A stretch of 64,000 nucleotides of DNA from NCBI RefSeq assembly GCF_002854065.1, contig NZ_CP024147.1; one strand, given 5' to 3'. Made by a program: the position numbers and the translations under genes. The notes beneath the pieces were generated by a model. The model did no database searches. It was given only the letters and a program-made list of their open reading frames with translations, and had not been told where the DNA came from. The stretch comes from Escherichia coli (GTDB taxonomy: Bacteria > Pseudomonadota > Gammaproteobacteria > Enterobacterales > Enterobacteriaceae). Shown one piece after another: positions 14,769 through 40,436 of the stretch; position 1 is the stretch's first letter; every line of letters begins with the position of its first letter.

Positions 14769-15752
<984 letters not shown>

Positions 15753-15763
15753 TCAGACGCAAA

Positions 15764-16339: not shown

Positions 16340-16399
16340 GTCACTTCCTTTGGTTATTCAATAACGTTGCTTGGAGTGCAAATTCACCAAAAAGTGCCG

Positions 16400-16849: not shown

Positions 16850-17261
16850 CTTCAATCAAACGCTTACCCAGACTCAGCACGTCGGCGTGTTCATATCCCA
16901 GGCGTTCATACATTCCGAGCACCATGTCGTTATCTTCCGGCACGTTGATCTGAATTTTCGGGCAGCCGCGAGCAATCAGCTTTTTCTCCAGCCGGTTAAG
17001 CAACGCATTGGCAATCCCACGCCCACGAAACTCTGGATGCACGCCAAGATAATAAGCAGACCCGCGATGCCCGTCATAACCGCCCATCACCGTTCCGACC
17101 ACTTCACCGTTCACCTCAGCGACCAGAAACAAACTGACGTCATGGTTCATCTTACGCTCGATGTCCATTTCCGGATCGTTCCACGGACGCAGCAAGTCGC
17201 AACGCTCCCAAAGGGTGATGACCTCTTCGAAATCTTCCTGGCGAAATACGCGTATCTCCAT
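16836..17261 (-). CDS. ypeA: GNAT-family acetyltransferase YpeA
   Basis: GNAT motif (GRGIANALL); start refined to ATG at 17259-17261 ([14 protein letters not shown]). Confidence 0.8.
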
Positions 17262-17474
17262 GGTATTCGTTACCTTTTTGCGGGTTAAAAGGCTGATTAT
17301 GGCGTGAACGGTCGAATTAGCCAATATCTGACGAAAATCGGTTGAAAAAGTGGCATAATGGGGAGTTGTCAACTATTGAAATGAAAAGTAAAACAATTCT
17401 CAACAGCAAACGGTCGTAACGGATTACGCGATACGATATAACATCTGGAACTTTATTATTACAACTCAGGCCGT

Positions 17475-18344
17475 ATGAGCACTTTTAAACCACTAAAAAC
17501 ACTCACTTCGCGCCGCCAGGTGCTGAAAGCCGGTTTGGCTGCCCTGACGTTGTCAGGAATGTCGCAAGCCATCGCCAAAGACGAACCTTTAAAAACCAGC
17601 AATGGACACAGCAAGCCGAAAGCTAAAAAATCTGGCGGCAAACGTGTCGTTGTTCTCGATCCAGGCCACGGCGGGATTGATACCGGAGCGATCGGGCGCA
17701 ACGGTTCGAAAGAAAAACATGTGGTGCTGGCGATTGCTAAAAACGTCCGTTCCATTTTGCGTAATCATGGGATTGATGCGCGTTTAACGCGTTCTGGCGA
17801 TACGTTTATCCCACTTTACGATCGCGTTGAAATCGCCCATAAACATGGCGCAGATCTGTTTATGTCAATTCATGCCGATGGCTTTACCAACCCGAAAGCT
17901 GCCGGTGCTTCGGTATTTGCCCTCTCTAACCGTGGGGCAAGTAGCGCAATGGCGAAATACCTGTCTGAACGCGAAAACCGCGCCGATGAAGTTGCCGGTA
18001 AAAAGGCGACTGACAAGGATCACCTATTGCAGCAAGTGCTGTTTGATCTGGTGCAAACCGATACTATTAAAAACAGCCTGACGCTTGGCTCGCATATTCT
18101 GAAAAAGATTAAGCCGGTGCATAAACTGCACAGCCGCAACACCGAACAAGCCGCGTTTGTGGTGTTGAAATCGCCGTCGGTTCCTTCGGTGCTGGTGGAA
18201 ACCTCGTTTATCACCAACCCGGAAGAAGAGCGGCTGTTAGGCACGGCGGCGTTTCGTCAGAAAATCGCCACAGCGATTGCTGAAGGCGTGATCAGTTATT
18301 TCCACTGGTTCGACAACCAGAAAGCACATTCGAAAAAGCGATAA
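17475..18344 (+). CDS. amiA: N-acetylmuramoyl-L-alanine amidase A
   Basis: Tat-type signal (SRRQVLKAG) and Amidase_3-like domain. Confidence 0.9.
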   Translation: MSTFKPLKTLTSRRQVLKAGLAALTLSGMSQAIAKDEPLKTSNGHSKPKAKKSGGKRVVVLDPGHGGIDTGAIGRNGSKEKHVVLAIAKNVRSILRNHGIDARLTRSGDTFIPLYDRVEIAHKHGADLFMSIHADGFTNPKAAGASVFALSNRGASSAMAKYLSERENRADEVAGKKATDKDHLLQQVLFDLVQTDTIKNSLTLGSHILKKIKPVHKLHSRNTEQAAFVVLKSPSVPSVLVETSFITNPEEERLLGTAAFRQKIATAIAEGVISYFHWFDNQKAHSKKR

Positions 18345-19247
<903 letters not shown>

Positions 19248-19252
19248 CTCCC

Positions 19253-20305
19253 TCACCCCCATTCCCGCATCCGCTGATGCAACGTCAACGACGGCTTCTC
19301 GGCAAACAGCTGCTGGTAATCCGTGGCAAATTGCCCCAGATGCCAGAATCCCCACTGCATGGCGGCGTCTTTTACCGTTGTGCTTTGCGACCACGGGCTT
19401 ATCAGTTCGCGGCGCACGGCGTTCAGGCGAATGCGTTTCAGCCACGCGTTTGGGCCAATGCCTAAAATAGCGTGAAACGCGTTTTGTAGCGTGCGGCGGC
19501 TGACATGCAGTTGATTACACAAATCCAGCACCGTCACCGGTTCGGACATGTTTTCCAGCACATATTCACGGGCGCGGGAAAGTAATCTACGGTAACTCTG
19601 ATGACTGATGCTTTCCGCCGTCACCATTGGCTGTGCTTCTTCCAGCATCGCCCCCATCGCCATTAGCAAATTATCCCCCAGCACTTTTCGCACTGCAGGC
19701 TGATGGAGATTTTCCGGGTTCTCGCAAAACGTCGCCAGCGCCTGTTGGACAAAGCCCCACAGCGCGGCTTTATGCTGCTCTTTCACTTCCAGCGCCGACT
19801 GGCTACGCAGCATATGTAATACCCGATCCGGATTATGCAAAAAGTTAGCCTGACGGGTGATGACATCTTCAGAAAGCACTACGCCCAGGATCGTGTAATC
19901 GTCCGGCGTACTTAATTCAAACTCGGTTCCACCGGGGCGCGTCGCTATTTCTGCGCTTCCCAGACATTGCGAACCGATAAATCCCTGCTCACCGCGCGTC
20001 GCCGGAATGCCAAACCAGAACGAGTTCGGCCAGACCAGGCACGACTGACGCAGCGCCAGACCGGTGTATTCACGAAAAACCTGAATATCATCGAGTAGAA
20101 TTTCCGTAAATTCACCATGAAACTTGCCCGGATGCAGCTGATCGTAAATCTGCTGCCAGGCGGTAATCGTTAAAGCATGTTCATAGACATCCGTTGTCTG
20201 TCGTTGATGAACATTATCCACTTCGACCTTCGGCGTGAGCTTCAGGTTTTCGGGTAAGGGTTCATGATAAAGATGGTGCAAATTGGCTGTACGGGTCTTT
20301 TTCAT
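19253..20305 (-). CDS. eutR: AraC-family activator of the eut operon
   Basis: 350-aa ORF with C-terminal AraC-type HTH; last gene of the eut cluster. Confidence 0.9.
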
Positions 20306-20350
20306 GATGTTAATGCCGGGTGTTGTAGGACACCCGGCACCTCCGACAGG

Positions 20351-20854
20351 TTAATGGGGCTTGAGACGATAACGACTACTGCGTTTACGTAACGTCCCGG
20401 CAGAAAAGAGCTGTTCGAGCGCATTTCTGGCTTTTTCCAGCGGCCAGCCAAAGTGGGCAGCCACTTCTCCTGCCGTCATTCCCTGACGTACTGATGTTAA
20501 CAGCGCCAACAACTCGTCAGCAGATTCCGCGACGATAACTGGCGCGTCGGGTTCCTTTACGGGTTGCTTCGGCTGGCGGTTAAAGCCAGTAACCAGCCAC
20601 TGGGTGTCATCGTCTGGCCGACCGATCTCCTTACGGCTGATGACACGCCCGGTACGCATCGCGGCAGCACAACCTGCGTCCAGCGCAGCACGACACGCCG
20701 CCAGATCGCCTTCCACCACCAGCGTTAAGCGACCAGGGTCAAGCACTTCGTGACTGAGCAGACAAACGTTAGCTGCTTTGAGCATGGCCGCTGCATCTAT
20801 CGCAGCGGCCATGCCGTCCACTTCCAGCAATCCCAGTGCATTGATCATCGGCAA
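20351..20854 (-). CDS. eutK: Ethanolamine-utilisation microcompartment shell protein EutK
   Basis: N-terminal BMC-domain-like sequence (ALGLLEVDGMAAAIDAAAMLKAANV) plus C-terminal extension; synteny. Confidence 0.85.
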   Translation of the reverse strand: MPMINALGLLEVDGMAAAIDAAAMLKAANVCLLSHEVLDPGRLTLVVEGDLAACRAALDAGCAAAMRTGRVISRKEIGRPDDDTQWLVTGFNRQPKQPVKEPDAPVIVAESADELLALLTSVRQGMTAGEVAAHFGWPLEKARNALEQLFSAGTLRKRSSRYRLKPH

Positions 20855-20860
20855 CCTCCA

Positions 20861-21520
20861 TTACGCACGCTGGATTGGATTACGCGCGATTTCCAGCACT
20901 GCATCGGTAAAGGCGTTACAGGCCGCTTTACACGCTGCCTGGCTACCGGTTAAAAATGCTGCCGAGTAGTTAGTTTCAGACGGTGGCGGGACATAGGTCA
21001 CCAGCTGTACGTCGGCAGATTTCAACGCTGCATCAATGCCGTAGGTCGCTTCCAGCGGCGGTGCCACCAGATACGCCATCGGATCGCCAAGCGTGATCCC
21101 GGCGGTTGATGAGAGATAAGAACCGGTACGCGAAACTACATGTGCCAGGAATGCCGTATCTTGCGCATCATTAGCCCACTGGAAAGCAGCGCCATTTTCA
21201 ATATGCGCAACCATCGCATCCAGACCGGCACGCACTTCCGCCGGGTTTGGCCCACCAAGCATAATCAGTACTTCACCGGCAGTCGGTGACGGGCCGTGTG
21301 CAGCGCCCGCATACAGCGAGCGGCCATACACCACTTCTACCATCGCTTGTTTGGTCGCTTCGTCAGCCGCAATGTAGGTTACGTCATCGGAATCAGCAGA
21401 AATCAGCCCGAGGCTACGAATATGCGGCGGCAATTTCAGTTCACGCGCAAAATCGGCGTTAACGGAGGCAATCACCCGCATAGCGGTGACAGACGGTCGA
21501 ATAAAATCTAAAGCTGGCAT
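20861..21520 (-). CDS. eutL: Ethanolamine-utilisation microcompartment shell protein EutL
   Basis: 219-aa tandem-BMC-type protein between eutC and eutK. Confidence 0.9.
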
Positions 21521-21529
21521 GATGCCTCC

Positions 21530-22417
21530 TTATCGGGTCATGTTGATGCCGGATGCTTTCTGCTCCAGCATACGTTTCGCCAAATCCACAATGACGGCTG
21601 CGGCTTCAACCGGCGGCGTGCCGCCCTGGTGAATGTTAGAGATACAGGTGCGATCGGCCTCAACGGTGGTCGCCATACGCGGCGAGTAAACGGCGTAGCA
21701 GGAGAGGCTTTCTGACTGACCCAACCCCGGACGTTCGCCCACCAGCAGGATCACTACTTTCGCGCCGAGGATCTCACCGATCTGATCTTCAATCTTCACG
21801 CGACCATAACGAACAAAGAATGGTGTACCGACTTTCAGCCCGGCCTGTTTCAGCCCCGCCATCAGCGGTGGCAGGATCTCTTCGTAGTTCACGGTGATCG
21901 CATCAGTTGACAGGCCATCAGAAATAACGACCTGTACGTCCGGATTAGCAACACACTGTGCTTTCAGCGCTTCAACAGCTTCTGCACACAGGCGGCGGCC
22001 CATATCCGGGCGAGTCAGGTAGAGATTTTTGTCGCTAATTTCAGAGCGTACTTCCAGCAAGCCCTGCGCTTTCACCCACTCTTCCGGCACTTCTTTAAGT
22101 ACGGTATCTTTCGAACGAGAGTGATCGGCCAGGAAACGCAGCAACGCCTGGGTACGCGGACGCGGACCGGCACGACCGGTACAAACGCGGGCCACGGTGC
22201 TGCGACGCAGTTCTGTTAACACATCCGCACGATGTGGGTTTTCAACACCAATCCACGCTTTTGCTTCCGCAGAACCTAAATCCAGCGCACAGCTTTCCGA
22301 GGTCACCGGTGCCGCACAGGTGGTAGTGGCGCACTTTGCTTCTGACGGCGCGGGGGCCGTTTGTCCCATTGACGCCATCACGCTGCGTACAATTTCTTCA
22401 ATCTGTTTTTGATCCAT
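21530..22417 (-). CDS. eutC: Ethanolamine ammonia-lyase small subunit
   Basis: 295-aa ORF downstream of eutB. Confidence 0.9.
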
Positions 22418-22437
22418 GATGTGTTATCTCCGCGTCA

Positions 22438-23799
22438 TCAGAAGAACAGTGACGGATCGCCCGCCCGTTTGATCAAGCGACCGTTTGCCATAATGCCCAT
22501 GCTTTCCAGCCAGCGTTCAAACTCCGGTGACGGGCGCAGGTTGAGTAACTGACGCACAGTGGCAGTGTCGTGGAAGGCGGTGGTCTGGTAGTTGAGCATG
22601 ATGTCATCGCCCAACGGCATCCCCATGATGTAATTGCAGCCTGCGGTGGCGAGCAGGATCATCAGGTTTTCGTTGAGGTTCTGGTCAGCGTCAGCGTGGT
22701 TGGTGTAACAGCAGTCACAGCCCATAGAGATGCCGCTCAGCTTGCCCATAAAGTGATCTTCTAAGCCCGCACGGATAATCTGGCGGTCGTTGTAGAGATA
22801 CTCCGGCCCAATAAAGCCGACCACGGTGTTGACGATAAACGGATCGTAATGACGCGCCAGCCCATAGTTACGTGCTTCCATCGTCACCTGGTCTGCGCCG
22901 AAGTTAGCGCCAGCGGATAGCGCTGAACCTTGTCCGGTTTCGAAGTAGAGGCAGTTTTCCCCGGCGATACGGTTGAACTCTGCACCCACTGCGCGCGCTT
23001 CGTCGAGCATCGCCAGTTCCACGCCAAACTCTTTCAGCCCTTTTTCACTGCCACAGATACTCTGGAAAATCAGCCCGCCTGGTGCGCCACGACGAATCGC
23101 TTCGATCTGGGTGGTGACGTGCGCCAGTACGCAGCCCTGAGTTGGGATGTTGAATTTGTCGATCACGCCATAGATGGTGTCCAGCACGCGGCTTAAGTTT
23201 TCCACGTCGTCAGTCACCGGGTTAACGCCGATCACCGCATCGCCCACCCCGAAGGAAAGCCCTTCGTAGATTTGCGCGGCGATACTTTGCACGTCGTCAC
23301 GGGTGTCATTTGGCTGCAAACGGGCGCTGAAGGTGCCCGGAATACCGATGGTGGTATTGGCCTTTTTGATTACCGGCATTTTCTTCGCGCCGTAGATCAG
23401 GTCCGCGTTGGAGCAAATCTTCGCTATCGCCGCGACCACTTCCGAGGTCAGCCCTTTGCGGGTAAAGGTAATGTCGTCCACGCTGGTTTCATCGCTCAGC
23501 ACATACTCACGCAGTTCGCTGATGCTCCAGTTTTTAATCTGGTTGTAGGCCGTTTCGTTAACATCGTCCTGAATCAGCCGCGTCACGCAGTCATCTTCAT
23601 AGGCAATCACCGGATTATTGCGGATGTCCGCTACGGTCATTTCCGACAACACCTGCTTTGCCGCCACGCGCTCCTGTGAACTTGCCGCTGCAACGCCTGC
23701 CAGCACATCCCCCGAACGCAGTTCGTTGGCTTTAGCCAGCACCTCTTTTACATCCTTAAACTGATATACATTGCCGAACAATGTGGTCTTTAGTTTCAT
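22438..23799 (-). CDS. eutB: Ethanolamine ammonia-lyase large subunit
   Basis: 453-aa ORF of the EutB family; first eut gene retained in this window. Confidence 0.9.
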   Translation of the reverse strand: MKLKTTLFGNVYQFKDVKEVLAKANELRSGDVLAGVAAASSQERVAAKQVLSEMTVADIRNNPVIAYEDDCVTRLIQDDVNETAYNQIKNWSISELREYVLSDETSVDDITFTRKGLTSEVVAAIAKICSNADLIYGAKKMPVIKKANTTIGIPGTFSARLQPNDTRDDVQSIAAQIYEGLSFGVGDAVIGVNPVTDDVENLSRVLDTIYGVIDKFNIPTQGCVLAHVTTQIEAIRRGAPGGLIFQSICGSEKGLKEFGVELAMLDEARAVGAEFNRIAGENCLYFETGQGSALSAGANFGADQVTMEARNYGLARHYDPFIVNTVVGFIGPEYLYNDRQIIRAGLEDHFMGKLSGISMGCDCCYTNHADADQNLNENLMILLATAGCNYIMGMPLGDDIMLNYQTTAFHDTATVRQLLNLRPSPEFERWLESMGIMANGRLIKRAGDPSLFF

Positions 23800-23986
23800 A
23801 AGTCGTTCCCTCAGGAAGAAGTGATGAGTAACATTTCTTCCAGCATTCGAACAATTCTATTTCATCGTTAGCCCTTGTCCTGTAAGGTAATTGTCTTAAC
23901 ACGCCCGTTATTCATCATGCCGAACGCAACCGAACGCGCCGGATACATGATCGGGTTTATCCAGTCGTTATGTCGAGGTATCCGGT

Positions 23987-25192
23987 TTGAGCAAGACACC
24001 ACTCACAGCAAAGGCCATCGCAGCCGCGCAGCCAAAAGACAAGCCCTATAAACTCACCGATTCACTGACGCCAGGACTGTTTTTGCTGGTGCATCCCAAC
24101 GGCAGCAAATACTGGCGATTCAGGTATTGGTTGAATAAACGAGAGTTTTTGCAGGCCATTGGTGTTTACCCGCTAATCACACTCAAAGAAGCACGCAGAC
24201 GCGCCACAGAGAGCCGATCTCTGATTGCTAATGGAATTAATCCAGTGGAAGAAGCACGCAAGGAAAAAGCCATTGATGCGCTCAACATGGCGGCAGGTTT
24301 TAAGACGGTAGCGGAGGACTGGCTGGCTACCAGGGTCAGCGGGTGGTCAGAGTCCTACACGAAACAGGTTAGATCGGCACTGGAAAAAGATGTTTACCCC
24401 GTGCTGGGGAAGCGGTCAATTGTCGATATAACGGCCCGTGACGTGCTGGAATTGCTTCAGAAGAAAGAGCGTACCGCACCGGAACAAGCCAGGAAGCTAC
24501 GCCAGCGTATCGGGGAGATCTTCAAATTTGCCGTTATCACCGAACTGGTGGCAAGAAATCCGGTTGCAGATCTGAACACAGCACTAAAAGCCCGCCGTCC
24601 GGGCCACAACGCATGGCTGCAAATTAACGAAATTCAGGCGTTCTATGAAGCACTTGAGAGAGCCGGGAGCGTCCAGATTCAGACGGCAATACGTTTGCTC
24701 ATATTGAGCGCTCTAAGGACGGTGGAACTGCGTAAAATGCGCTGGGAATGGGTTAACCTGGAAGACGCGATCATCACCCTACCCGCTGAAGTCATGAAGG
24801 CCCGTCGCCCGCATGTGGTCCCGCTATCACGGCAGGCGGTAGAGCTATTGCAGGACCAGTTTACTCGCACCGGATACAGCGCTTTCGTCTTCCCTGGTCG
24901 ATTCATGGATAAGCCCTTGTCTGCCAGCGCGATACTGAAAGCCCTGGAGCGTATCGGATACAAGTCGATAGCCACAGCACACGGCTGGCGTACAACGTTC
25001 AGCACGACGCTTAACGAGTCCGGCAGGTACTCACCAGACTGGATTGAAATCCAATTGGCCCACGTCCCGAAGGGTGTACGCGGTGTATATAACCAGGCGG
25101 CCTATCTCAAACAGCGCCGTCAAATGCTTCAGGACTACGCCGACGCCATTGATTCAATACTGGCTGGTGAAGGTAATCCGCTGGAACCGTGA
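23987..25192 (+). CDS. intZ: P4-type tyrosine integrase of a prophage remnant (TTG start)
   Basis: 401-aa ORF with N-terminal P4-integrase arm motif (KLTDSLTPGLFLLVHPNGSKYWRFRYW) and C-terminal tyrosine-recombinase core; K-12 has intZ next to eutB. Confidence 0.8.
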   Translation: MSKTPLTAKAIAAAQPKDKPYKLTDSLTPGLFLLVHPNGSKYWRFRYWLNKREFLQAIGVYPLITLKEARRRATESRSLIANGINPVEEARKEKAIDALNMAAGFKTVAEDWLATRVSGWSESYTKQVRSALEKDVYPVLGKRSIVDITARDVLELLQKKERTAPEQARKLRQRIGEIFKFAVITELVARNPVADLNTALKARRPGHNAWLQINEIQAFYEALERAGSVQIQTAIRLLILSALRTVELRKMRWEWVNLEDAIITLPAEVMKARRPHVVPLSRQAVELLQDQFTRTGYSAFVFPGRFMDKPLSASAILKALERIGYKSIATAHGWRTTFSTTLNESGRYSPDWIEIQLAHVPKGVRGVYNQAAYLKQRRQMLQDYADAIDSILAGEGNPLEP

Positions 25193-25198
25193 ACTATA

Positions 25199-25224
25199 AG
25201 GCCGGATTCGTCCGGCTTTTCTTT
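25199..25224 (+). terminator. Rho-independent terminator after the integrase gene
   Basis: Stem gccgga / tccggc with ttcg loop followed by ttttcttt. Confidence 0.5.
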
Positions 25225-25418
25225 CGCTAATTATTCCACTATTCCAATTAAGTGGAATAAATTATTCAATATCAAAAACTTACATCAATATTGCAACAAT
25301 AAAAACGGTGGCTTATGATCAGATCATGATTTTCGGTATGTGAACAGCAAAAACAAGAAGCCCGGAAAGGCGGCAACCAATCCGGGCGATATGGGAAAAG
25401 AGATTAGGAGGTTTCCCC

Positions 25419-26186
25419 ATGCGTAATAGTTTAGCAGTTCGCTTTAGCTTGCAGCAAGGCGAAGAATTATCACAGGAATATCAATTCATCAAATACGAAG
25501 AAGCGCCGGAACAGGTGCAAATAGCTTTTGATGATCAGCACTACGGCAACACTATCCGCTACGACGGTAAAAAATGGTTTCTCAATCCGGTAACAAATGC
25601 CATTCACGTATGTCAAATCATTACGCCAGTAAATAACAGCGCGGATAACGATTCGGCTATTGACGCTGAACTGGTGACAGAACCACTACCGCCACCGCCG
25701 CCAGTACAAGAAAGCGATGTAAAACCCGACGCCATCGATCTGACAGCAGAAGCCAGAGAGCGCAAACAACCGAAGCCGGAACAACCGCAAGCCAAGGATA
25801 ACAAACAGTGGCACGGTAACACGGCGTATCTGAATACGTTTGCTTGTCATCTTCATGAAGTGCTACCACAGGCCATCTATAGCACATGGTGCGACAAACA
25901 AACGGCGGCACACTTCCACCTGCTTTACGCGCTTTGCTACCTGGCAAGCTACGAAAACAAAGATGAAGGTATCGAGCTTGGCGAGGTGTTATATGGTGCT
26001 GAAAAGATCACAAAGGGCGGCGTAGTACCTGGTTTCCATATGGCCCGATCAACGTTCGATATCAAGATTAACGAGCTTGAACAGTGGGGATTAATCAAGG
26101 TAACACGAGGTAAGAAACGTAAGGACGGGCAAGGCAACTTGCCGAACAGTATCAAACTGAACTTTAAGCCGTACAGTTTAAAATAA
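25419..26186 (+). CDS. Hypothetical prophage protein, possibly a winged-helix replication-initiator-like protein
   Basis: 255-aa ORF behind a strong SD (aggagg); proline/acidic linker then a basic C-terminal segment (ELEQWGLIKVTRGKKRKDG) resembling winged-helix initiators; weak inference. Confidence 0.55.
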   Translation: MRNSLAVRFSLQQGEELSQEYQFIKYEEAPEQVQIAFDDQHYGNTIRYDGKKWFLNPVTNAIHVCQIITPVNNSADNDSAIDAELVTEPLPPPPPVQESDVKPDAIDLTAEARERKQPKPEQPQAKDNKQWHGNTAYLNTFACHLHEVLPQAIYSTWCDKQTAAHFHLLYALCYLASYENKDEGIELGEVLYGAEKITKGGVVPGFHMARSTFDIKINELEQWGLIKVTRGKKRKDGQGNLPNSIKLNFKPYSLK

Positions 26187-26194
26187 TCACACTA

Positions 26195-26220
26195 GGCGGG
26201 CAATGTTCCCGCCTTTTCTT
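26195..26220 (+). terminator. Rho-independent terminator after the 255-aa ORF
   Basis: Stem ggcggg / cccgcc with 7-nt loop followed by ttttctt. Confidence 0.5.
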
Positions 26221-26243
26221 TGCCTCAATCCTATAAAATTCAC

Positions 26244-26282
26244 ATCCCGAAAATCGGTATCTGGGTATCCCGAAAATCGGTA
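26244..26282. repeat. Two perfect 16-bp direct repeats ATCCCGAAAATCGGTA with 23-bp period
   Basis: Copies at 26244-26259 and 26267-26282, immediately followed by an AT-rich tract. Confidence 0.7.
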
Positions 26283-27668
26283 AGTAATAATAAGTATTAT
26301 CCTTAAAGGTAAAAACCATATAAGTAAGATCTATCTCTTCAAGAATGTATATATTCACTACGTTCATATATACATGAGAAGTTTCCCTTTCATGCAGTCA
26401 AAACTACATTCATCAGCATCGCTTTCTGCGCTCTCCTTCCCAGCAAGCTGGAAAGGCCCATTCACTCACGCACAACCTGCAAACCAGACCAACATACCAT
26501 CATGGCGATTCGTTCATGGGTAGCGCGGGTATATCTCAAAGGGTGATTTCTTCTTGGTGGACCTTCGGAAGACTTCGAGCAATCGCCAGCTCAAAAGACG
26601 GTCTGGCAGTGATGGTTATCATCGACAGCATTGAGCGCTACCGCGCCAACTTACAGCAGCAGGATAACTACCGAAGGAAAACCCACGCCGAAAGGGATTG
26701 ACTCACTGCAAAGCCAATGGGTTTTATCAGCGTATACAGACCAGACAGGAAACAGCAGCAAAGCAGCGTATAGCCAGGTGCAGACAGTACCATCACACAA
26801 CGCACAGCAGGCTGAGGTGAACACTCAAACAGGTTTATCCCCGCAGCCGACCAACGCAAACCATCCTGACCGTGCCAAATTCGAACGGAATGGTGCCTGT
26901 AACGCGATGAACACATATAACCGCTTACTTGCTTACCTGAAAACTTCACGTCGCCACAGAGCGATTTAGACGCATTATAATTGATGCGATTTCATTAAAT
27001 TTTCACCAGACACCGGAACAACGCCGATTAATCCAGGAATGGATTCATCGACATGCGCCGCTTTCCCCGCAGAACAGTCTCGCCTGAATAGTCTCACCAA
27101 CCAGATTTCAGATTGTCCAATCAGGCACGTCTCATTAAACGACAGAATGCGGCCTACAACGCCATCGCTGCCGATCTCGTTTGAGCAAGGTGCTGAGACT
27201 GAATGACGGACGCCCACTCCTCAGAGCTGAGGAATCGCCACACAGAACGCTGAGATCTGATATTACCGCCGCACCATTCCACGCCAGACGAATCAATCTA
27301 ATCACACCTGAGCAAATGCATTGCCAAAAATTAAGGCCGTCAGAATGCGTTATATTGCGTTTAAACGGCATCTAATTTTAATTAGTTTTGATGTGGTGAT
27401 TGCAGGCAAAAAAAATCCCGCCGGAGAGAGCGGGGAAGTGAAATCAATCGTTGTAGTTATAGATCACATTTTGAGTAAGGGTTACCAGCCCTTGAGTAAT
27501 ATTATCCCTGTATTACGTGAGATGCGCAATTATTTTTTGCTAATTAAAAGTTTTGTAAACATTACAGAATATCCCCTTTCCCTATATGGTAAAAGATGTG
27601 AAACAGGGACATGAGGAATATAATATTAAGTATCAACAGTAATGTTGGTCTTTAATTTCATTCAGGGC

Positions 27669-27710
27669 GCGGTGAGGGTTTTCCCATATTTTTCCTCACC
27701 GCTACTTTTT
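27669..27710 (+). terminator. Terminator/attenuator-like hairpin in the leader of the AlpA-like gene
   Basis: Perfect 9-bp stem gcggtgagg (27669-27677) / cctcaccgc (27694-27702), 16-nt loop, T5 run at 27706-27710. Confidence 0.4.
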
Positions 27711-27721
27711 GAGGTGAGAAC

Positions 27722-27913
27722 ATGAATGATAGCGAATTAATGACGGTGAGCGAGGTAGCCGCTTTATTCGGCGTTACCCGACGCACTATATTCCGCTGGC
27801 TGAACAAGATTAAAGGTTGGCCCGTTCCGGTTACTCCGGTCGGTGCACGAATTAAGTTTATCCGATCTGAGATTTTGGAATTCTATAAAAACAAAGGCGC
27901 TCGCCACCAATGA
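27722..27913 (+). CDS. AlpA/excisionase-family helix-turn-helix prophage regulator
   Basis: 63-aa ORF MNDSELMTVSEVAALFGVTRRTIFRWLNK; HTH typical of prophage AlpA/Xis-type regulators; SD gaggtga 6 nt upstream. Confidence 0.7.
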   Translation: MNDSELMTVSEVAALFGVTRRTIFRWLNKIKGWPVPVTPVGARIKFIRSEILEFYKNKGARHQ

Positions 27914-27989
27914 AAACAGCTACTGAGATTATCAAATAACCTATTGATTTAATAAGCTAGCTACCGCAATTTCTGAAGGAATAGGCAGC

Positions 27990-28316
27990 ATGAAAATCAA
28001 AGCAAACACAATTAAAGAAATAACATCAATCAAAGTAAAAGGAGCAGATGCCATGCATTCATTAGACAGTTATTTTCAGCGCACGACAGCCCCTAAATCA
28101 GCCGCCCAGGAACGCCGTGAGGAATTCCAGGAAAAAGTGATGCGTTCTGCTGATTATATTGCGGACAAGTTCGTGGAAACGGTTCGGCCACTTGTTGATG
28201 AAGTAGCTGATAAACTTCAGTCTGAAATGCCGGAAGACATGGAAGGCACTGCAAAGGCGCGACTCCTTTTTGAATTAAGTCGTCGTTTCGGCGTGTCAAT
28301 AAGCACTTTTAAATAA
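27990..28316 (+). CDS. Hypothetical prophage protein (108 aa; may start at internal Met)
   Basis: ORF in co-directional tight cassette; no recognisable motif. Confidence 0.45.
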   Translation: MKIKANTIKEITSIKVKGADAMHSLDSYFQRTTAPKSAAQERREEFQEKVMRSADYIADKFVETVRPLVDEVADKLQSEMPEDMEGTAKARLLFELSRRFGVSISTFK

Positions 28317-28333
28317 TCGGAGGAGAAAAGACA

Positions 28334-28876
28334 ATGGACGCATTTGATGTACTGACAAACAAAGGCGATGAACTGGTAGCACAGCGTGATAAAACCGCCA
28401 ACGAAGGGGAACGCGCACTGTTAAATAAGCAGATTAAAGCGATCCGTATGGCCCAGTTTAAATTAATCAGCAATGAAGTTATCGAAATAATTAAACCGCA
28501 GATCCCACAAATCGTTGCTGACGCTATTAAAGCCGCCGGACTGGAGAAACGCATTGCCGGGCTGAAAACGAACGCAGAGAAAATGGAGATGCACAAACAG
28601 AGCGGTGCTCCGACTCCGGATGAGTACTTCTCACCGGATGCTGAGTTTATGGCGCAGGTTGAGGAACGTCTGGGTAGCTGTCTCACCGAGGAACAGCGTC
28701 GCTATTTTGATGGAGTGGATAGTTCGGCAGGTATTGACCTGAACTCGTGTTTCGGTCGTGAAATTGAGCATTTTGATGCCGCCCCGTCTATGCCGGAGCC
28801 AGAACCAGAAATGGCCGCCGATCCTGAAGCTGAGCAACGGAAACGCGTATTCAATGCGATAGGGATTCGGTACTGA
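28334..28876 (+). CDS. Hypothetical prophage protein (180 aa) with acidic C-terminal tail
   Basis: Strong SD (ggagga) 7 nt upstream; predicted helical N-terminal half and PEPEPE-containing acidic tail; no recognisable motif. Confidence 0.55.
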   Translation: MDAFDVLTNKGDELVAQRDKTANEGERALLNKQIKAIRMAQFKLISNEVIEIIKPQIPQIVADAIKAAGLEKRIAGLKTNAEKMEMHKQSGAPTPDEYFSPDAEFMAQVEERLGSCLTEEQRRYFDGVDSSAGIDLNSCFGREIEHFDAAPSMPEPEPEMAADPEAEQRKRVFNAIGIRY

Positions 28877-28927
28877 TCGGATAAAAGAAAGCCGGGAATT
28901 ACCCCGGCTGACTTAACAATGTGACCA

Positions 28928-29302
28928 ATGAACAAATCGGACAAGACAAACAGGATAAGCAGTCTCGAAACAATGTTCGGGAACTATATTAGCACAAGTC
29001 CGGAGAAAATCATCATGTTGGCACTACGCATCATGCAGGGCATCGCTAAGACCCTCGCAGAACATGTCTTAGACCTGAAACATTCGCCACTGAGCAAACA
29101 GGCCATGAAGCGCCAAACGCTTCGTCTGTGGGCTGAATATTCGCTTGGAACTATCAATAAAATCATCGACATGAAATCGGGGCCGAGCAACCAGAGCGCG
29201 GAGGAAATGGAGTTCATCAGGCGTTTAATTCTCATTCGCAGAGATATTCATAGCCAGTTACACAGCGTGGGAATCGATATTAATGATGGGACGGGCGATT
29301 AA
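28928..29302 (+). CDS. Hypothetical prophage protein (124 aa)
   Basis: ORF in same cassette; basic, helical; no recognisable motif. Confidence 0.5.
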   Translation: MNKSDKTNRISSLETMFGNYISTSPEKIIMLALRIMQGIAKTLAEHVLDLKHSPLSKQAMKRQTLRLWAEYSLGTINKIIDMKSGPSNQSAEEMEFIRRLILIRRDIHSQLHSVGIDINDGTGD

Positions 29303-29340
29303 TTTTCGGACAAGTACAATGCGCGCGCGAGGAGCTGAAC

Positions 29341-29571
29341 ATGAAGCAAGATATTGCAGACAGGCTGGAGATACTCGAAGGCCAGCGGGCAGAAGCGAAA
29401 CAACTACGTAAGCAGGCCAGAAGAGCGCACAGGAACTACGAAGCAGAATCACTGACCGCTTTCATCAACTTCACAAACCGTTGCATCCAGGAGTGTTACA
29501 GGGAGGATGCAGAAAACTGGCTGGATTCATTGCCAGAACAGACTCTGCATGAACTGAACGGCGACCAGTAA
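29341..29571 (+). CDS. Hypothetical prophage protein (76 aa, coiled-coil-like)
   Basis: SD gaggag 7 nt upstream of ATG; Arg/Glu/Gln-rich helical sequence. Confidence 0.45.
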   Translation: MKQDIADRLEILEGQRAEAKQLRKQARRAHRNYEAESLTAFINFTNRCIQECYREDAENWLDSLPEQTLHELNGDQ

Positions 29572-29859
29572 ATAAATCCAGTACGTTTCCCGCAGTGCGC
29601 ATAACGTACATTATGTGAAAAACGATATGGATGTATATCAGTATTGATTTCATTGAGAAAACTGGGTTTTCAGTGGCACAGACAAAGAAGCATAGCTGAT
29701 ACAGCTTTATAAGCCATTGATTCTATTAAGTGATGTTTTTTGTGATTGGTTGAAGCAAACCAAAACACGATGCCACTGAAGCGTTAATAAACTGTTTCAA
29801 TGTGAAATTATTAGAGTAAAGAACAATTTGGAGGGTCCGCAAACGCGGATAACAATATC

Positions 29860-32040
29860 ATGAGTGGAAATCTCGGGACCATATACTACGAGGTCGATGC
29901 CCGCACTGGGAAACTTCTTATCGCGCAACAGCAGGCGGAAGAGGCGTTCGATCGCATTGAACGAGGAGCGCGGAAGGCTGATAGCGGCGTCAAAAAGTTA
30001 AATACGCAGATGACTAAAACATCAGCCGCAGTCAAAACCAACCTTTCCCCGGCAATCCGTAACGCATCATACCAGATCGCAGACCTTGCCACTCAATTGC
30101 AGATGGGCGGTAATGCGCTTCAGGCGTTCGCTGTGCAGGGTGCGCAGTTATTAGCTGGCTTTGGCACGATGGGCGCGGTAGCTGGCGCGGTGCTGGCTAT
30201 CGCTGGCGCTATGGGTGGAAGCCTGGCACAAGGCGCTGATAGTGCAGCCGGATCGGTTGAGTATCTGGACAAGGCGATCACCAAACTGAACGAGGTCATA
30301 GCTGTAAATGAACAGGGCGTGACGGTGATGAGTGATAGTTACGCCAGACTTTCTAAGGTTAACGCTGAAGTAGCGAAACAGATGCGGAACATGGCTGAAA
30401 TTCAGGCAATTGCAGCACTGCGTGACCTGAAAGAACAGGCAAGCCAGGCACAGGGGGAAATGTCGTCATTCTGGCGCAGCTTGCAGGGTGGTAAAGCTGA
30501 CGCAGCAGCAGCAGCACAGGCACTTGATGATCTTGGAATCACAACCAACGACTACAAAGAGGCGATAGCCATACTGAACGCCAATCAGCCGGATACACAG
30601 GCGCAAATGGCAACGCTAGCCAAATCCGTGATGTATGTTGGAGAGCAATATGATCTGACCAACCAGCAAGCATACGAATTTATACGCGCACTAAATAAGG
30701 CCGCGACAACGAAAACGCCGGAAGCCATGCAGGAGCTATCTGGCTTCATGCAGGTTTTGCTTCAGGATACCGAAAACGGTAACGAGGCATTCCGTGAACT
30801 GGCTATCAAATTCGTCGATGCACAAACCAAAGGCGCAATGTTGGAGGACCAACTAAACCGACTGAAAGGCGCTATTAGTGACGCAGCCACAGAAGCCAGA
30901 AACGCAAACTTTACCACTATGCTCAACACCGTCGCCGCACGCCTGGCAACCATTGAGCAAGGTTGGGAGGCAGGCGTTAGGATGCAGATGAAAGCCCAGG
31001 GCTACACTGAAGAGCAGATCGATGAATATGTGAACATGGAAACGGCGTACCGTGATGCAAAAGCCGCTTTGGACGAGAAGAACAAGGCCGACCGTGAAGC
31101 TATTGCGCTATCCAAACGCCAGGCCGCAGAAGCAGCCCGCAAGGCAAAACAGGAAGAAGCTGAAGCACAACGCAAGGCCAAACAGTTAGCCGCGCAGAAG
31201 GAGCAGGCAGGACGCTTTACGCAGCAAGTAATGACGGAATACCTGACGACCGTAGATCCGGCAACAGGCAAGGCGTTTAACCCTGCCGCACAAGTAGAAA
31301 TGCAGGAGCAGCAGAAGAAAGCGGCGCTGGATAAATACAGACAGTTGGGCGTCCTGGATGAACAGCAGTACCAGAACACGCTAACCGCCATCCAGAAAAC
31401 CGCGTCAATGCGCCGCCAGCAAATCATCAAAGACGAGGCCGACACGTTATTCAACAATCAGCAACAGTTGATCGGCACATTTGGCGATTTCTTCGGTGAA
31501 CTGTCTGGAGTCATAGCAGACGGTGCAGGTGAGCAAAACGCGGCATATCAAGCGCTATTTGCTGTGCAGAAGGGTTTTGTATTGGCATCAGCAGCTTTAA
31601 GCCTTCAGAAAGCGCTTGCTGAGGCAAACGCCTTGCCTTTCCCGGCTAATCTTCCGGCCTATGCGCAAGCTATGTCAGCAGGTACGCAGATCATTTCAGC
31701 TATTCGTGGAATAGCTTTCGGTGGCGGACGCTACAACGGCGGCGCGGTTGGTGCTGGCAACCTGTACCGCGTGGGTGAACACGGTAAGCCTGAGATATTC
31801 AAGGCGAACAATGGCAGCCAGTACATGATCCCAGGTGATAACGGTCGCGTGATAAGTAATCGTGACATTGGCGGCGGTGGCGGCGTAACAATCAACAGCC
31901 CGATCACCATTAACACTACGAATGGCTTCAGTGATGAAGACTCAAGGCGTCTTGAGGAAGCGATGAAGCGCGTAGCTATGGGCGTTTGCAGGCAGGAGTC
32001 AACCAGACCGGGAGGAATGTTAGCCCCGCGCCGTCGTTAA
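29860..32040 (+). CDS. Phage tail tape-measure-like protein
   Basis: 726-aa Ala/Gln-rich mostly helical ORF with glycine-rich hydrophobic N-terminal segment, long coiled-coil region (AEAARKAKQEEAEAQRKAKQLAAQKEQ) and C-terminal Gly-rich motif GGGRYNGGAVGAGNLYRVGEHG resembling the lambda gpH C-terminus as recalled. Confidence 0.65.
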   Translation: MSGNLGTIYYEVDARTGKLLIAQQQAEEAFDRIERGARKADSGVKKLNTQMTKTSAAVKTNLSPAIRNASYQIADLATQLQMGGNALQAFAVQGAQLLAGFGTMGAVAGAVLAIAGAMGGSLAQGADSAAGSVEYLDKAITKLNEVIAVNEQGVTVMSDSYARLSKVNAEVAKQMRNMAEIQAIAALRDLKEQASQAQGEMSSFWRSLQGGKADAAAAAQALDDLGITTNDYKEAIAILNANQPDTQAQMATLAKSVMYVGEQYDLTNQQAYEFIRALNKAATTKTPEAMQELSGFMQVLLQDTENGNEAFRELAIKFVDAQTKGAMLEDQLNRLKGAISDAATEARNANFTTMLNTVAARLATIEQGWEAGVRMQMKAQGYTEEQIDEYVNMETAYRDAKAALDEKNKADREAIALSKRQAAEAARKAKQEEAEAQRKAKQLAAQKEQAGRFTQQVMTEYLTTVDPATGKAFNPAAQVEMQEQQKKAALDKYRQLGVLDEQQYQNTLTAIQKTASMRRQQIIKDEADTLFNNQQQLIGTFGDFFGELSGVIADGAGEQNAAYQALFAVQKGFVLASAALSLQKALAEANALPFPANLPAYAQAMSAGTQIISAIRGIAFGGGRYNGGAVGAGNLYRVGEHGKPEIFKANNGSQYMIPGDNGRVISNRDIGGGGGVTINSPITINTTNGFSDEDSRRLEEAMKRVAMGVCRQESTRPGGMLAPRRR

Positions 32041-32163
32041 CCAAATCCCACGCCAGGGGAACAGACTGGCGGACCTTCAAAGACGGTCGCACACCGTGTT
32101 TGACATAATTTATTGTTTTTTGCTTGCTCTTATTATTGCAGCCGTTAGGGTAATGACTCCAAC

Positions 32164-32667
32164 TTATTGATAGTGTTTTATGTTCAGATAATGCCCGATG
32201 ACTTTGTCATGCAGCTCCACCGATTTTGAGAACGACAGCGACTTCCGTCCCAGCCGTGCCAGGTGCTGCCTCAGATTCAGGTTATGCCGCTCAATTCGCT
32301 GCGTATATCGCTTGCTGATTACGTGCAGCTTTCCCTTCAGGCGGGATTCATACAGCGGCCAGCCATCCGTCATCCATATCACCACGTCAAAGGGTGACAG
32401 CAGGCTCATAAGACGCCCCAGCGTCGCCATAGTGCGTTCACCGAATACGTGCGCAACAACCGTCTTCCGGAGACTGTCATACGCGTAAAACAGCCAGCGC
32501 TGGCGCGATTTAGCCCCGACGTATCCCCACTGTTCGTCCATTTCCGCGCAGACGATGACGTCACTGCCCGGCTGTATGCGCGAGGTTACCGACTGCGGCC
32601 TGAGTTTTTTAAATGGCGGAAAATCGTGTTGAGGCCAACGCCCATAATGCGGGCGGTTGCCCGGCAT
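32164..32667 (-). CDS. insB: IS1 InsB reading frame (expressed as InsAB transposase by -1 frameshift)
   Basis: 167-aa ORF overlapping the insA 3-prime end in the -1 frame, classic IS1 organisation. Confidence 0.85.
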
Positions 32668-32861
32668 CCAACGCCATTCATGGCCATATCAATGATTTTC
32701 TGGTGCGTACCGGGTTGAGAAGCGGTGTAAGTGAACTGCAGTTGCCATGTTTTACGGCAGTGAGAGCAGAGATAGCGCTGATGTCCGGCAGTGCTTTTGC
32801 CGTTACGCACCACCCCGTCAGTAGCTGAACAGGAGGGACAGCTGATAGAAACAGAAGCCAC
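32586..32861 (-). CDS. insA: IS1 InsA protein
   Basis: 91-aa [46 protein letters not shown] with zinc-finger cysteines. Confidence 0.9.
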
Positions 32862-32988
32862 TGGAGCACCTCAAAAACACCATCATACACTAAATCAGTA
32901 AGTTGGCAGCATCACCAGCTTTACTAATATATTGCAGCTGGACCGCTTACCCTGAATATTCAGGGTAAGCGTGAGAGTTAAAAAAGAA

Positions 32989-35268
32989 TTACAGCGGTTG
33001 GGTTTGCGCTTCAACCACGGCCAGCGCCACCATGTTGACGATACGACGTACCGATGCGATCGGCGTTAACACGTGAACCGGTTTCGCCACGCCCATCAGC
33101 ACCGGACCGACAGTCACACCTTCCGAGCTGGAAACGCGCAGTAAGTTGTAACTAATGCGGGCAGCTTCCATGTTTGGCATTACCAGAATATTGGCAGAAC
33201 CTTTCAAAGGGCTGTCCGGCATACGGTCGTTGCGAATCGCTTCCACCAGCGCTGCATCGCCGTGCATTTCACCATCAATCATCAGTTCTGGCGCACGTTC
33301 CCTGACCAGTTCCAGCGCCTGACGCATTTTGCTCGACGACGGACAGTCAGAAGAACCAAAGTTGGAGTGCGACAACAGAGCAACGCGCGGCTCAATACCA
33401 AAACGACGGACAGTTTCTGCCGCCATCAAGGTGATCTCCGCCAGCTCTTCTGCGTCTGGTTCGTCATTGACGTAGGTATCGGCAATAAAGGTGTTACCAC
33501 TCGGCAGCAGCAGCGCGTTCATTGCACCTGCGGTGTGAACGCCATCGCGATAACCAAAGACATTTTTCACCACGCTAAAATGTTCATGATAATCACCCAC
33601 CGTACCGCAAATCATTGCATCGGCTTCGCCACGCTGAACCATGATCGCGCCGATCACTGTCGGGTTACTGATCAACGCCCGCTGCGCCTGTTCCTGAGTG
33701 ACGCCGCGACGCTTCATGATCTGGAAGTATTCGGTCCAGTACTCTTTAAAGCGCGGATCGGATTCGTTATTGACGATCTCAAAATCAACGCCCGCTTTGA
33801 TCTGCAAGCCCAGTTTCTGAATGCGCATTTCGATCACGTTCGGACGACCGATAAGGATCGGTTTCGCCAGTCCCAGCGTTACCAGTTCCTGAGTGGCATG
33901 TAGAACGCGCGCCTCTTCCCCTTCCGGCAGAACTACGCGCTTCGGCGCTTTGCGAGCCTGGGAGAAAATCGGCTTCATAAACAGGTTGGTTTTGTAAACG
34001 AACTCAGTCAGCTTGTCGATGTAGACGTCGAAATCAGCAATCGGACGCGTCGCCACGCCCGACTCCATCGCCGCTTTCGCGACCGCAGGAGCGATCTTAA
34101 CGATCAAGCGCGGATCAAACGGTTTTGGAATGATGTATTCCGGACCAAAGCTCAGATCCTGATCGCCATACGCTGAAGCCACCACTTCGCTCTGTTCCGC
34201 ATGGGCCAGTTCTGCAATCGCGCGTACCGCCGCCAGTTTCATCTCTTCGTTGATGGCGGTTGCGCCAACGTCCAGCGCGCCACGGAAGATGAACGGGAAG
34301 CAAAGGACGTTGTTGACCTGGTTTGGATAGTCAGAACGACCGGTGCAGATGATGGCATCCGGACGCACTTCTTTCGCCAGCGGCGGCAGAATTTCCGGTT
34401 CCGGGTTCGCCAGCGCCAGGATCATTGGCGCTCGAGCCATTTTCTTCACCATTTCCTGGGTCAGCACTTTCGGGCCGGAACAGCCGAGGAAAATATCCGC
34501 GCCTTCAATCACATCATCGAGGGTACGTTTGCCGTCATCCACTACCGCATATGCGGCTTTGGTTTCCGCCATGTTTGGCTCACGGCCCTGATAGATAACG
34601 CCTTTTGAATCGCAAACCACGATGTTATGTTTTTGCAGACCCAGCGCGACCAGCAGGTTCATACAGGCGATTGCTGCAGCACCCGCGCCGGAAACCACCA
34701 TACGCACGTCAGAGATGTTTTTCTCCACCACGCGCAAGCCGTTGAGGATGGCGGCAGTGCTGATGATTGCCGTGCCGTGCTGATCGTCGTGGAATACCGG
34801 AATATTCATCCGCTCGCGCAGTTTCTGTTCAATATAGAAACATTCTGGCGCTTTAATGTCTTCGAGGTTGATTCCGCCGAAGGTCGGTTCGAGCGCAGCG
34901 ACGACTTCAATAAATTTGTCCGGGTCGAGTTCATCAACTTCAATGTCAAATACATCAATCCCGGCGAATTTCTTAAACAGAACGCCCTTGCCTTCCATCA
35001 CCGGTTTGCCTGCCAGCGCGCCAATGTTGCCTAACCCCAGCACCGCCGTACCGTTAGAGATCACCGCCACCAGGTTACCGCGCGCGGTATATTTGTAGGC
35101 TTTTAACGGGTCTTTTTCGATTTCAAGACAAGGTGCGGCAACGCCTGGTGAGTAGGCCAGCGCCAGATCGCGCTGCGTTGCCAGAGGCTTGGTTGGAGAA
35201 ACCTGGATTTTCCCTGGAACTGGAAATTCATGGAAATCAAGTGCACTTTGTTTTAACTGGTCATCCAT
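32989..35268 (-). CDS. maeB: NADP-dependent malic enzyme
   Basis: 759-aa ORF with N-terminal malic enzyme domain and C-terminal phosphotransacetylase-like domain. Confidence 0.95.
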
Positions 35269-36507: not shown

Positions 36508-36526
36508 ACCAGCCACGGAGTGTTAT

Positions 36527-38610: not shown

Positions 38611-38624
38611 TCCCGCCATTTTGT

Positions 38625-40369: not shown

Positions 40370-40436
40370 ACCGACTCCACAGCGCGAAATGAACAATTAT
40401 CTTACGCTGTGAAGTCGGGTTTGTCTGCGCAGGCTA

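Follow-up and report, generated by a model that had tools for sequence, protein, structure and literature searches.

A five-gene eut remnant in Escherichia coli, very probably the stump of a standard operon recently lost by IS1 deletion

The eut locus in the 64,000-nucleotide stretch of Escherichia coli DNA analysed here (the window) is very probably what remains of a standard 17-gene enterobacterial ethanolamine utilization operon that was recently lost by IS1 deletion and is undergoing ordinary decay. Five genes, eutR, eutK, eutL, eutC and eutB, survive at full length between 19253 and 23799 on the minus strand, and 12 of the 17 eut genes, together with the main promoter P1, are absent from the window. 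Because the reactivase, the adenosyltransferase, the permease, the acetaldehyde dehydrogenase, the phosphotransacetylase and the shell core are all missing, the remnant should be unable to run the pathway.

The presence of five intact eut reading frames, already recognized in the preliminary description, is confirmed by their coordinates and by NCBIfam models that all five proteins match end to end, far over the curated cut-offs. The AraC-family activator of the eut operon, EutR (19253..20305, 350 aa), matches the equivalog model NF007522 over 1-350/350 with 790 bits, as expected of the activator encoded by the last gene of the long operon, and its protein accession is the same as that in strain 33F4, whose operon is intact. 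The shell protein EutL (20861..21520, 219 aa; NF011934, 400 bits) and both subunits of ethanolamine ammonia-lyase are likewise intact. The small subunit EutC (21530..22417, 295 aa; NF003971, 340 bits) has an N-terminal extension of ~50 residues, the family profile beginning at residue 52, and its accession is identical in the intact microcompartment operon of 33F4. The large subunit EutB (22438..23799, 453 aa; NF011649, 662 bits) aligns over residues 1-453 to PDB 3abo. Both lyase subunits of the long, EutR-regulated microcompartment operon of Enterobacteriaceae are present. Protein lengths equal those of intact strains, bar the shell protein EutK (20351..20848; NF012010, 347 bits), which is one codon short at 165 rather than the usual 166 aa; the mechanical open reading frame list extends its start to a TTG at 20854. 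Alignments place three changes in EutK, V14A, a deletion of D21 and R30C, and the missing D21 corresponds to the conserved Asp in the edge motif 'aaDam.K' seen in PduA and other BMC-H structures. Judged from these alignments, the EutK changes are likely damaging. This eutK allele was found only in strains CUWW06 and 100416 among 5386 genomes searched. Because the five genes are annotated orthologues, the question of whether the locus is more than chance does not apply.

The rest of the operon is gone from the window. The 12 missing Eut proteins gave paralogue-level tblastn matches only (EutM to EutK, EutD to MaeB), so that of a complete shell set of EutS, EutM, EutN, EutL and EutK only eutL and eutK are present, the sole match for EutS, EutM and EutN being the paralogous one to EutK. 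A blastn search of the window with the 13-kb deleted interval returned no match, and eutA-eutS has no more than an 86-bp repeat match in CUWW06, a near-identical strain whose genome is complete. EutA, EutT, EutD, EutE, EutG and the permease EutH are thus encoded neither in the window nor in the complete CUWW06 genome. The earlier list of absent genes was correct as far as it went, but eutH, eutJ, eutP and eutQ have been lost too. P1 and its EutR site lie in the part of the maeB-eutS spacer nearest eutS (PMC5821096), and this 220-bp eutS-proximal spacer is deleted, with zero copies in the window. Such a loss is rare, as eutE-N-M is absent from just 16 of 5426 complete genomes. The seeming lack of eutA-eutH beside eutG in ~850 genomes was rejected as a reporting artefact of a longer, repeat-bearing eutH-eutG spacer; the operon of BLR(DE3), for example, is full.

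The deletion ends at a complete IS1. This IS1B-like element (32149..32916, minus strand, 768 bp) is identified by annotation and by its terminal inverted repeats, begins with GGTAATGACTCCAACTTA and ends with TAAGTTGGCAGCATCACC, and carries its transposase on the strand of eutB. No 8-9 bp target-site duplication borders it, the flanks being the dissimilar TGCAGCCGTTAG and AGCTTTACTAAT. Beyond it lie the remaining 72 bp of the maeB-eutS spacer (32917..32988, minus strand), which include a hairpin downstream of maeB and align to 42193-42264 of strain 13TMH22 and 30861-30932 of 33F4, and then maeB itself (32989..35268, minus strand; NCBIfam and annotation), the usual upstream neighbour of eutS that now adjoins IS1. 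The DNA lost here is contiguous in both 13TMH22 and 33F4, and the deleted interval measures 13,027 bp in 13TMH22 coordinates. The complete genomes of CUWW06 (Thailand) and 100416 (Gambia) have the same IS1-maeB junction, and the maeB side is identical in all three strains. The opposite joint varies: it lies at 32148 in the window, 31951 in CUWW06 and 28446 in 100416, so that IS1 has cut deeper into the neighbouring prophage by 197 bp and 3.7 kb, respectively. A constant IS1-maeB joint combined with a varying prophage joint is what IS-anchored nested deletions characteristically leave behind. All three nested deletions end before eutB, which could reflect selection, and three events are too few to tell.

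On the other side of IS1 lies the remnant of a CPZ-55-like integrative element (23819..32148, plus strand), identified from the annotation of CUWW06 and 13TMH22, an NCBIfam integrase domain and PHROG matches. It retains intZ (23987-25192; NCBIfam integrase domain and annotation), an AlpA-like HTH protein (27722-27913) and a tape-measure-like protein (29860-32040), and its right arm and attR are deleted in the window. Beside eutB the window has both a tyrosine integrase and the attL core TCAGGAAG; attR, with the same core duplicated, is found only in the relative 13TMH22. Identity to the prophage-free K-12 strain GM4792 stops at 23818, which leaves 19 nt (23800..23818, minus strand) as the last native DNA upstream of eutB; they hold the ribosome-binding region of eutB, the stop codon of eutA and the attL core. 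PADLOC found nothing among the prophage reading frames, and an Rfam scan of the whole window returned no family. A probe for the eutB-prophage junction matched 405 of 5426 complete genomes. In O157:H7 an intZ element likewise sits beside eutB, and EHEC has been reported to use ethanolamine; prophage insertion alone thus need not silence eutBC.

These features very probably reflect a stepwise history. A CPZ-55-like tyrosine-integrase element would first have entered a known hot spot, the eutA stop codon (core TCAGGAAG), and placed ~10 kb of antisense prophage DNA between P1 and eutBCLKR. An IS1 would then have inserted into the AT-rich stretch between maeB and eutS, at a point 72 bp from the stop codon of maeB; we infer this order of the two insertions. 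Intramolecular transposition of that IS1 would have produced an adjacent deletion of ~13 kb that started at the IS1 end and took out P1, the genes eutS to eutA, attR and the right arm of the prophage, and in the sister strains the same IS1 later cut further into the prophage. Both the IS1 deletion and the prophage split have known counterparts. The intact IS1 at the joint, the lack of a target-site duplication and the one constant flank are shared with known IS1 adjacent (nested) deletions, compared with which nothing here is unusual and only the locus is specific. The CPZ-55 split of K-12 MG1655 and BW25113 has the same arrangement, with the intZ element at the same hot spot between eutA and eutB and divergent from eutB. 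K-12 nevertheless differs in that all 17 genes, P1 and both ends of the prophage are present, whereas here the right arm, attR, 12 genes and P1 have been deleted, with the consequence that excision can no longer restore the operon.

The remnant is also young. Nearly the same eut haplotype occurs inside the uninterrupted operon of 33F4, whose EutR, EutL, EutC and EutB protein accessions are those of the remnant lineage and whose DNA differs from window positions 15000-23818 by ~0.2%. Polarised with 13 outgroups, the branch since the ancestor shared with 33F4 carries 3 substitutions and 1 in-frame codon deletion, namely the three EutK changes and one synonymous change in eutB, so that eutK holds 3 of the 4. 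There is no change in eutR on this branch, which fits constraint as well as recency. The window strain itself adds two further private missense SNPs, EutL L6F (21503) and EutB T443I (22472); T443 is also present in Listeria EutB (2qez), and the I443 allele occurs in 0 of 5385 genomes. With so few events no broken reading frame would be expected, and the intact frames therefore speak of recency and not of selection. Of the two explanations that the preliminary description offered for them, a recent event is thus supported, the remnant being only 3 substitutions and one codon deletion away from an intact-operon haplotype, and a selected residual function finds no support, as the few changes mostly alter amino acids and one removes a conserved residue of the EutK shell motif.

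Several candidate signs of accelerated decay did not hold. An apparent excess of amino-acid changes in the lineage (N:S 6:6 vs 41:324 among 13 intact strains, P=0.0014) weakened once singletons were compared like for like (28:90, P=0.08), and it is uninformative in any case, as recent private housekeeping SNPs are mostly nonsynonymous too (4:0 in the window strain, 5:3 in 100416). EutB A111T and V125I were rejected as decay because the same EutB protein occurs in the intact operon of 33F4. The comparison of eut with flanking genes, using two outgroups, was not significant (P=0.12-0.42).

Expression of the remnant is probably minimal. In K-12 strains MG1655 and NCM3722 a prophage at the eutA/eutB site prevents growth-supporting use of ethanolamine (PMC3045373), and in BW25113 it abolishes eutB induction, with eutR and eutS still responding (PMC7617246). 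The effect published for K-12 is thus an ethanolamine-negative phenotype with eutB uninduced and eutR still responsive (PMC3045373, PMC7617246, PMC6652756). In the window eutBCLK have no known promoter. The earlier statement that the module lacks a promoter is right for the operon promoter P1 and overstated for eutR, whose P2 region is identical to that of 33F4. Salmonella eutR has a weak constitutive promoter of its own upstream, P2 (PMC5821096, PMC7617246), and the stretch where P2 would be expected from its description in Salmonella (20306..20750, minus strand; PMC5821096) covers the 45-bp spacer and the 3' part of eutK. These 445 bp carry one allele that is absent from 10 intact strains, and a simple sigma-70 scan of them found no site; across our promoter and terminator scans, counts did not exceed the shuffled expectation. 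Low-level production of EutR from the predicted P2 probably continues, but its operon target is gone. The suggestion that eutB might be transcribed by read-through survives only in part: IS1 lies in the right direction, on the same strand, but intZ is divergent and cannot read into eutB. Transcription from IS1 would have 8.3 kb to cross, antisense to the prophage genes.

Could the remnant nonetheless be alive, with EutR as a stand-alone ethanolamine/B12 sensor, with low eutBC transcription sharpened by a G-to-A change at 23971, or with both? We consider this unlikely. The version in which selection keeps eutR as an orphan sensor, made from P2, binding ethanolamine and adenosylcobalamin and regulating non-eut genes while eutBCLK hitchhike, is improbable. 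In its favour, non-eut genes such as ler are under direct EutR control in EHEC, and in Salmonella ethanolamine signalling is independent of catabolism (PMC4810492, PMC5821096). The EutR that responds to ethanolamine and B12 and regulates virulence genes in EHEC and Salmonella is of the same family as the full-length EutR found here, which would permit a role independent of catabolism (PMC4810492), and the P2-bearing stretch is unchanged, with 0 substitutions in eutR against 3 changes in eutK on the branch. With ~4 stem events in 4.4 kb, however, zero in the 1-kb eutR is what chance would give. No EutR target, virulence gene or other, is known in this background, which lacks LEE, and with P1 the strain has also lost the feedback by which EutR levels rise.

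It is highly unlikely that eutBC provide low-level ethanolamine deamination for nitrogen, driven by a promoter at the prophage end or by read-through from IS1 and raised by the 23971 SNP. Both lyase genes are intact, the ribosome-binding region is kept, and two weak sigma-70-like sites lie on the eutB strand (23976-23947 and 23881-23854, 9/12 matches each), in one of which the window-private SNP turns TCGACG into TCGACA in the -35-like hexamer and improves the match from 8 to 9 of 12. Such sites are nevertheless at chance level, with 5 found against 4.7 expected in shuffled sequence. The eut segment holds 3 of the 9 window-private SNPs in 8% of the length (hand-calculated binomial P ~0.03), an enrichment we set aside as marginal, post hoc, uncorrected and absent on the other two branches. 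EutB T443I alters a residue conserved as far as Listeria, the opposite of selection for activity. Metabolosome-free EutBC systems are known in Acinetobacter (PMC9426561), and the short eut loci of Acinetobacter, Pseudomonas and others, made up of eutR or eatR, a permease and eutBC, resemble the remnant superficially in pairing lyase and regulator (PMC5821096, PMC9426561). Those loci, however, have a regulated promoter before eutBC, a permease and an EutC without an encapsulation peptide, whereas the remnant has a 19 nt native leader with no known promoter, neither an EutH nor an Eat permease, no EutT, and an EutC that still has the long N-terminal extension typical of compartment-targeted EutC and is identical to the protein of intact operons. 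In Salmonella, lyase of this compartment type needs EutA: EutBC without it supports no growth on ethanolamine, and in a strain that lacks the entire eut operon EutBC gives poor growth (PMC9426561). The lack of eutB induction behind the prophage of BW25113 (PMC7617246) also argues against residual activity. That the junction arose in assembly, by a collapse of IS1 copies in a genome whose operon is really full, is scarcely credible: IS1 occurs in many copies in E. coli (an IS1-containing query matches a median of 10 places per genome) and repeats are classic misjoin sites, but CUWW06 and 100416, complete genomes that were sequenced independently and come from two continents, share the IS1-maeB junction and lack eutA-S, and the lineage-specific eutK allele co-occurs solely with the deletion.

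In summary, the stump of the standard eut operon is ordinary reductive evolution, an event of an already known kind, with little importance beyond strain biology. It shows clearly how an operon can erode step by step in nature, from prophage split to IS1 deletion to IS1 nibbling and the first missense and indel damage. If low eutBC transcription did occur, the locus would be a metabolosome-free, nitrogen-scavenging lyase in which a long operon had been reduced towards the design of a short eut locus; more generally, activity of EutR or EutBC would illustrate how a long microcompartment operon may shrink to little more than a sensor and a lyase, and nothing here supports such activity. The anatomy of the locus predicts that the lineage is unable to use ethanolamine, which nearly all E. 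coli can exploit as a nutrient in the gut.

In a window that spans the E. coli chromosome from cysK to hyf, our analysis confirmed the five eut genes of the preliminary description as back-to-back minus-strand ORFs at 19253-23799, with the eutR stop and the eutB start as exact bounds. EutR, EutK, EutL, EutC and EutB gave whole-length NCBIfam matches with scores far over the curated cut-offs, and every ORF is as long as in reference strains apart from EutK (165 versus 166 aa). Directly upstream of eutB a 19-nt native leader is followed by the tyrosine integrase gene intZ (23987-25192, divergent from eutB), the remaining prophage genes (to 32148), an entire IS1 of 768 bp (32149-32916) and a 72-bp remainder of the maeB-eutS spacer (32917-32988), beyond which lies maeB. 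Ordinary strains carry maeB, a 292-bp spacer and then eutS-P-Q-T-D-M-N-E-J-G-H-A-B-C-L-K-R. The 12 missing Eut proteins gave paralogue-level matches at most in tblastn searches of the window, and the deleted DNA had no blastn match within it; the genes earlier listed as absent are indeed gone, but that list was incomplete, as eutH, eutJ, eutP and eutQ are gone too. All parts of the locus are known, annotated genes. Within the prophage remnant, a 255-aa ORF (25419-26186) matched no PHROG or PADLOC family, and the related prophage of strain 13TMH22 has no annotated gene there; a 726-aa protein (29860-32040) matches tape-measure PHROGs and no NCBIfam model.

Comparison with prophage-free strains places the entry point of the integrase element at the eutA stop codon, and the window carries the core TCAGGAAG at attL, whereas 13TMH22, which combines a closely related prophage with the full operon, has it at both ends of the element. 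This prophage hot spot of the eut operon is the site of CPZ-55 in K-12 (PMC6652756, PMC7617246), a cryptic prophage that splits the operon there just as in the remnant, and a 601-bp probe for the eutB-intZ joint was at least 80% covered in 405 of 5426 complete E. coli genomes. Relative to 13TMH22 the window lacks 13,027 bp (29166-42192 of that strain's locus, L002), comprising three prophage genes including yffS, attR, eutA-eutS and the eutS-side 220 bp of the spacer. IS1 occupies the deletion joint precisely and its flanks, TGCAGCCGTTAG and AGCTTTACTAAT, are unrelated, so that a target-site duplication is absent; this is the trace expected of IS1 intramolecular transposition, and makes the deletion a textbook case of IS1 adjacent deletion. 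The closest complete genomes, CUWW06 (wastewater, Thailand) and 100416 (human stool, Gambia), have an IS1-maeB joint identical to that of the window and IS1-prophage joints that lie deeper by 197 bp (CUWW06, window-equivalent 31951) and 3,702 bp (100416, 28446), the window retaining the most prophage DNA of the three. A constant flank with serial end points opposite is the signature of IS-anchored nested deletions, and these nested joints in sister genomes rule out an assembly artefact. In the whole CUWW06 genome the eutA-eutS interval had no counterpart beyond an 86-bp repeat match, so these genes were lost and not relocated.

Strain 33F4 (calf, Switzerland) retains an intact, uninterrupted 17-gene operon with neither prophage nor IS1, and its EutR, EutL, EutC and EutB protein accessions are the same as in the deletion lineage (window strain, CUWW06 and 100416). 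Window 15000-23818 differs from 33F4 by ~0.2%, against 1-3% in the flanks, a mosaic pattern of one near segment between divergent ones, and the eut haplotype was therefore shared recently with 33F4. When differences from 33F4 were polarised using 13 outgroup strains, only EutK V14A, loss of the EutK D21 GAT codon, EutK R30C and one synonymous eutB change fell on the lineage's own branch, with EutL L6F (21503), EutB T443I (22472) and an intergenic SNP (23971) private to the window strain. eutR is unchanged on that branch, its four synonymous differences being derived in 33F4; these cluster in 213 bp (L023, the 33F4 locus, 16438-16651; eutR nt 258-471), which suggests a small recombination patch within a near-identical haplotype. 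Roughly six events fall within 4.4 kb, and by rough estimate a random substitution yields a stop codon in only a few percent of cases, so that no broken ORF is expected even under complete neutrality, and intact frames are therefore uninformative about selection. Of the proposed recent event or selected residual function, the few changes from 33F4 bear out the former, while the frames offer no sign of the latter. Over some 57-61 kb the three strains diverge pairwise by 2-4 x 10^-4 per site; at the commonly quoted E. coli clock of roughly a few 10^-7 per site per year, their common ancestor, with the deletion already present, would have lived very approximately centuries to a millennium or two ago.

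The substitutions themselves are compatible with relaxed constraint, although the statistics are weak. The EutK allele (V14A, D21 deletion, R30C) occurs in 2 of 5386 genomes holding the stretch, exactly those with the operon deletion, and when it is aligned to BMC-H structures (PduA 3ngk, 6qn1, 6ner) its gap lies opposite the Asp of the conserved 'aaDam.K' segment, which we take to be the D-x-x-x-K edge motif of hexamer tiling. EutB T443 is conserved in E. coli (3abo) and Listeria (2qez) EutB, and the T443I allele was found in none of 5385 other genomes. The lineage's N:S of 6:6 differs from 41:324 among intact strains (P=0.0014), with P=0.08 against their singleton changes (28:90); a nonsynonymous excess is usual among very young mutations, and housekeeping genes in the flanks show it too, their very recent private SNPs being mostly nonsynonymous (window 4:0, 100416 5:3). 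EutB A111T and V125I were rejected as decay, both being present in the intact operon of 33F4. Nine SNPs distinguish the window from both sisters (8033, 21503, 22472, 23971, 26926, 32473, 46062, 55145 and 58075), eight of them G:C to A:T or T:A, and all six genic ones are nonsynonymous (cysP P316L, EutL L6F, EutB T443I, acrD Y526F, bamC S198N, hyfA M1I), which looks like a raw, unselected mutation spectrum. The SNP at 58075 turns the annotated hyfA start ATG (58073-58075) into ATA in the window strain only, and an in-frame ATG lies upstream at 58034. CUWW06 carries an IS26 insertion (20608-21778 of its locus, L007; window equivalent about 60630-63370) at which hyfC, hyfD and parts of hyfB and hyfE are lost; the window hyf genes are intact.

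The description of the genes as promoterless holds for P1, the main EutR-dependent promoter before eutS, whose region is deleted with no copy found within the window, but it is too strong for eutR. In the P1 region the EutR site immediately precedes the -35 element (PMC5821096), and eutR has its own low-level constitutive promoter, P2, ahead of it (PMC5821096, PMC7617246). Over the 445 bp upstream of eutR the window matches 33F4 exactly, which makes continued weak expression of eutR probable. For eutBCLK, just the 19 native nucleotides remain upstream. As for the suggested read-through, IS1, like maeB, is on the eutB strand, but 8.3 kb off, so that transcripts would have to run antisense through prophage genes, and intZ transcription, being divergent, cannot reach eutB. 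A consensus scan upstream of eutB gave two weak sigma-70-like candidates (23976-23947 and 23881-23854, 9/12 matches each), no commoner in this region than in shuffled sequence; the window-private SNP 23971 changes TCGACG to TCGACA within the first, and any role in that putative site is speculative. In O157:H7 an intZ element also adjoins eutB, and EHEC uses ethanolamine, so a prophage at this site is not always silencing. Among the cargo of the element in O157:H7 F3113 (L005 7738-10481) is a gene for a YafO-family toxin, so lineages differ in what this hot spot carries. K-12 strains in which a prophage occupies this site are unable to use ethanolamine (PMC3045373), and BW25113 responds to it in eutR and eutS and not in eutB (PMC7617246). 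Salmonella EutBC without EutA gave no growth on ethanolamine as nitrogen source, and EutBC in a whole-eut-operon deletion strain only poor growth (PMC9426561). By analogy, these data argue against eutBC activity in the remnant, and we regard EutR as an orphan ethanolamine/B12 sensor, or low-level nitrogen scavenging by eutBC, as highly improbable.

Among 5426 complete genomes, an eutE-eutN-eutM probe matched 5410 and the eutBCLKR segment 5424; strains without the operon core are thus rare (about 0.3%). Some ~850 genomes seemed to form a class in which eutA-eutS coverage reached just 74%, but this proved an artefact of BLAST pieces joined across a longer eutH-eutG spacer; BLR(DE3) has a complete operon. 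Unrelated E. coli likewise have IS1 copies at several differing sites within the AT-rich spacer between maeB and eutS, where P1 lies (L020, L021, L022), for example 503025, PO06101 and F1053, the last with an accompanying eutD-T-Q inversion; the spacer is a possible IS1 hot spot, at which insertions would silence or rearrange the eut operon. Measured against a eut operon, the remnant falls short on three hallmarks, having lost the shell core, accessory enzymes and P1. Nor is it a short eut locus of the metabolosome-free type, since promoter and permease are lacking and its EutC is of the compartment type. It is a real and correctly described remnant, and a case of ordinary recent reductive evolution.
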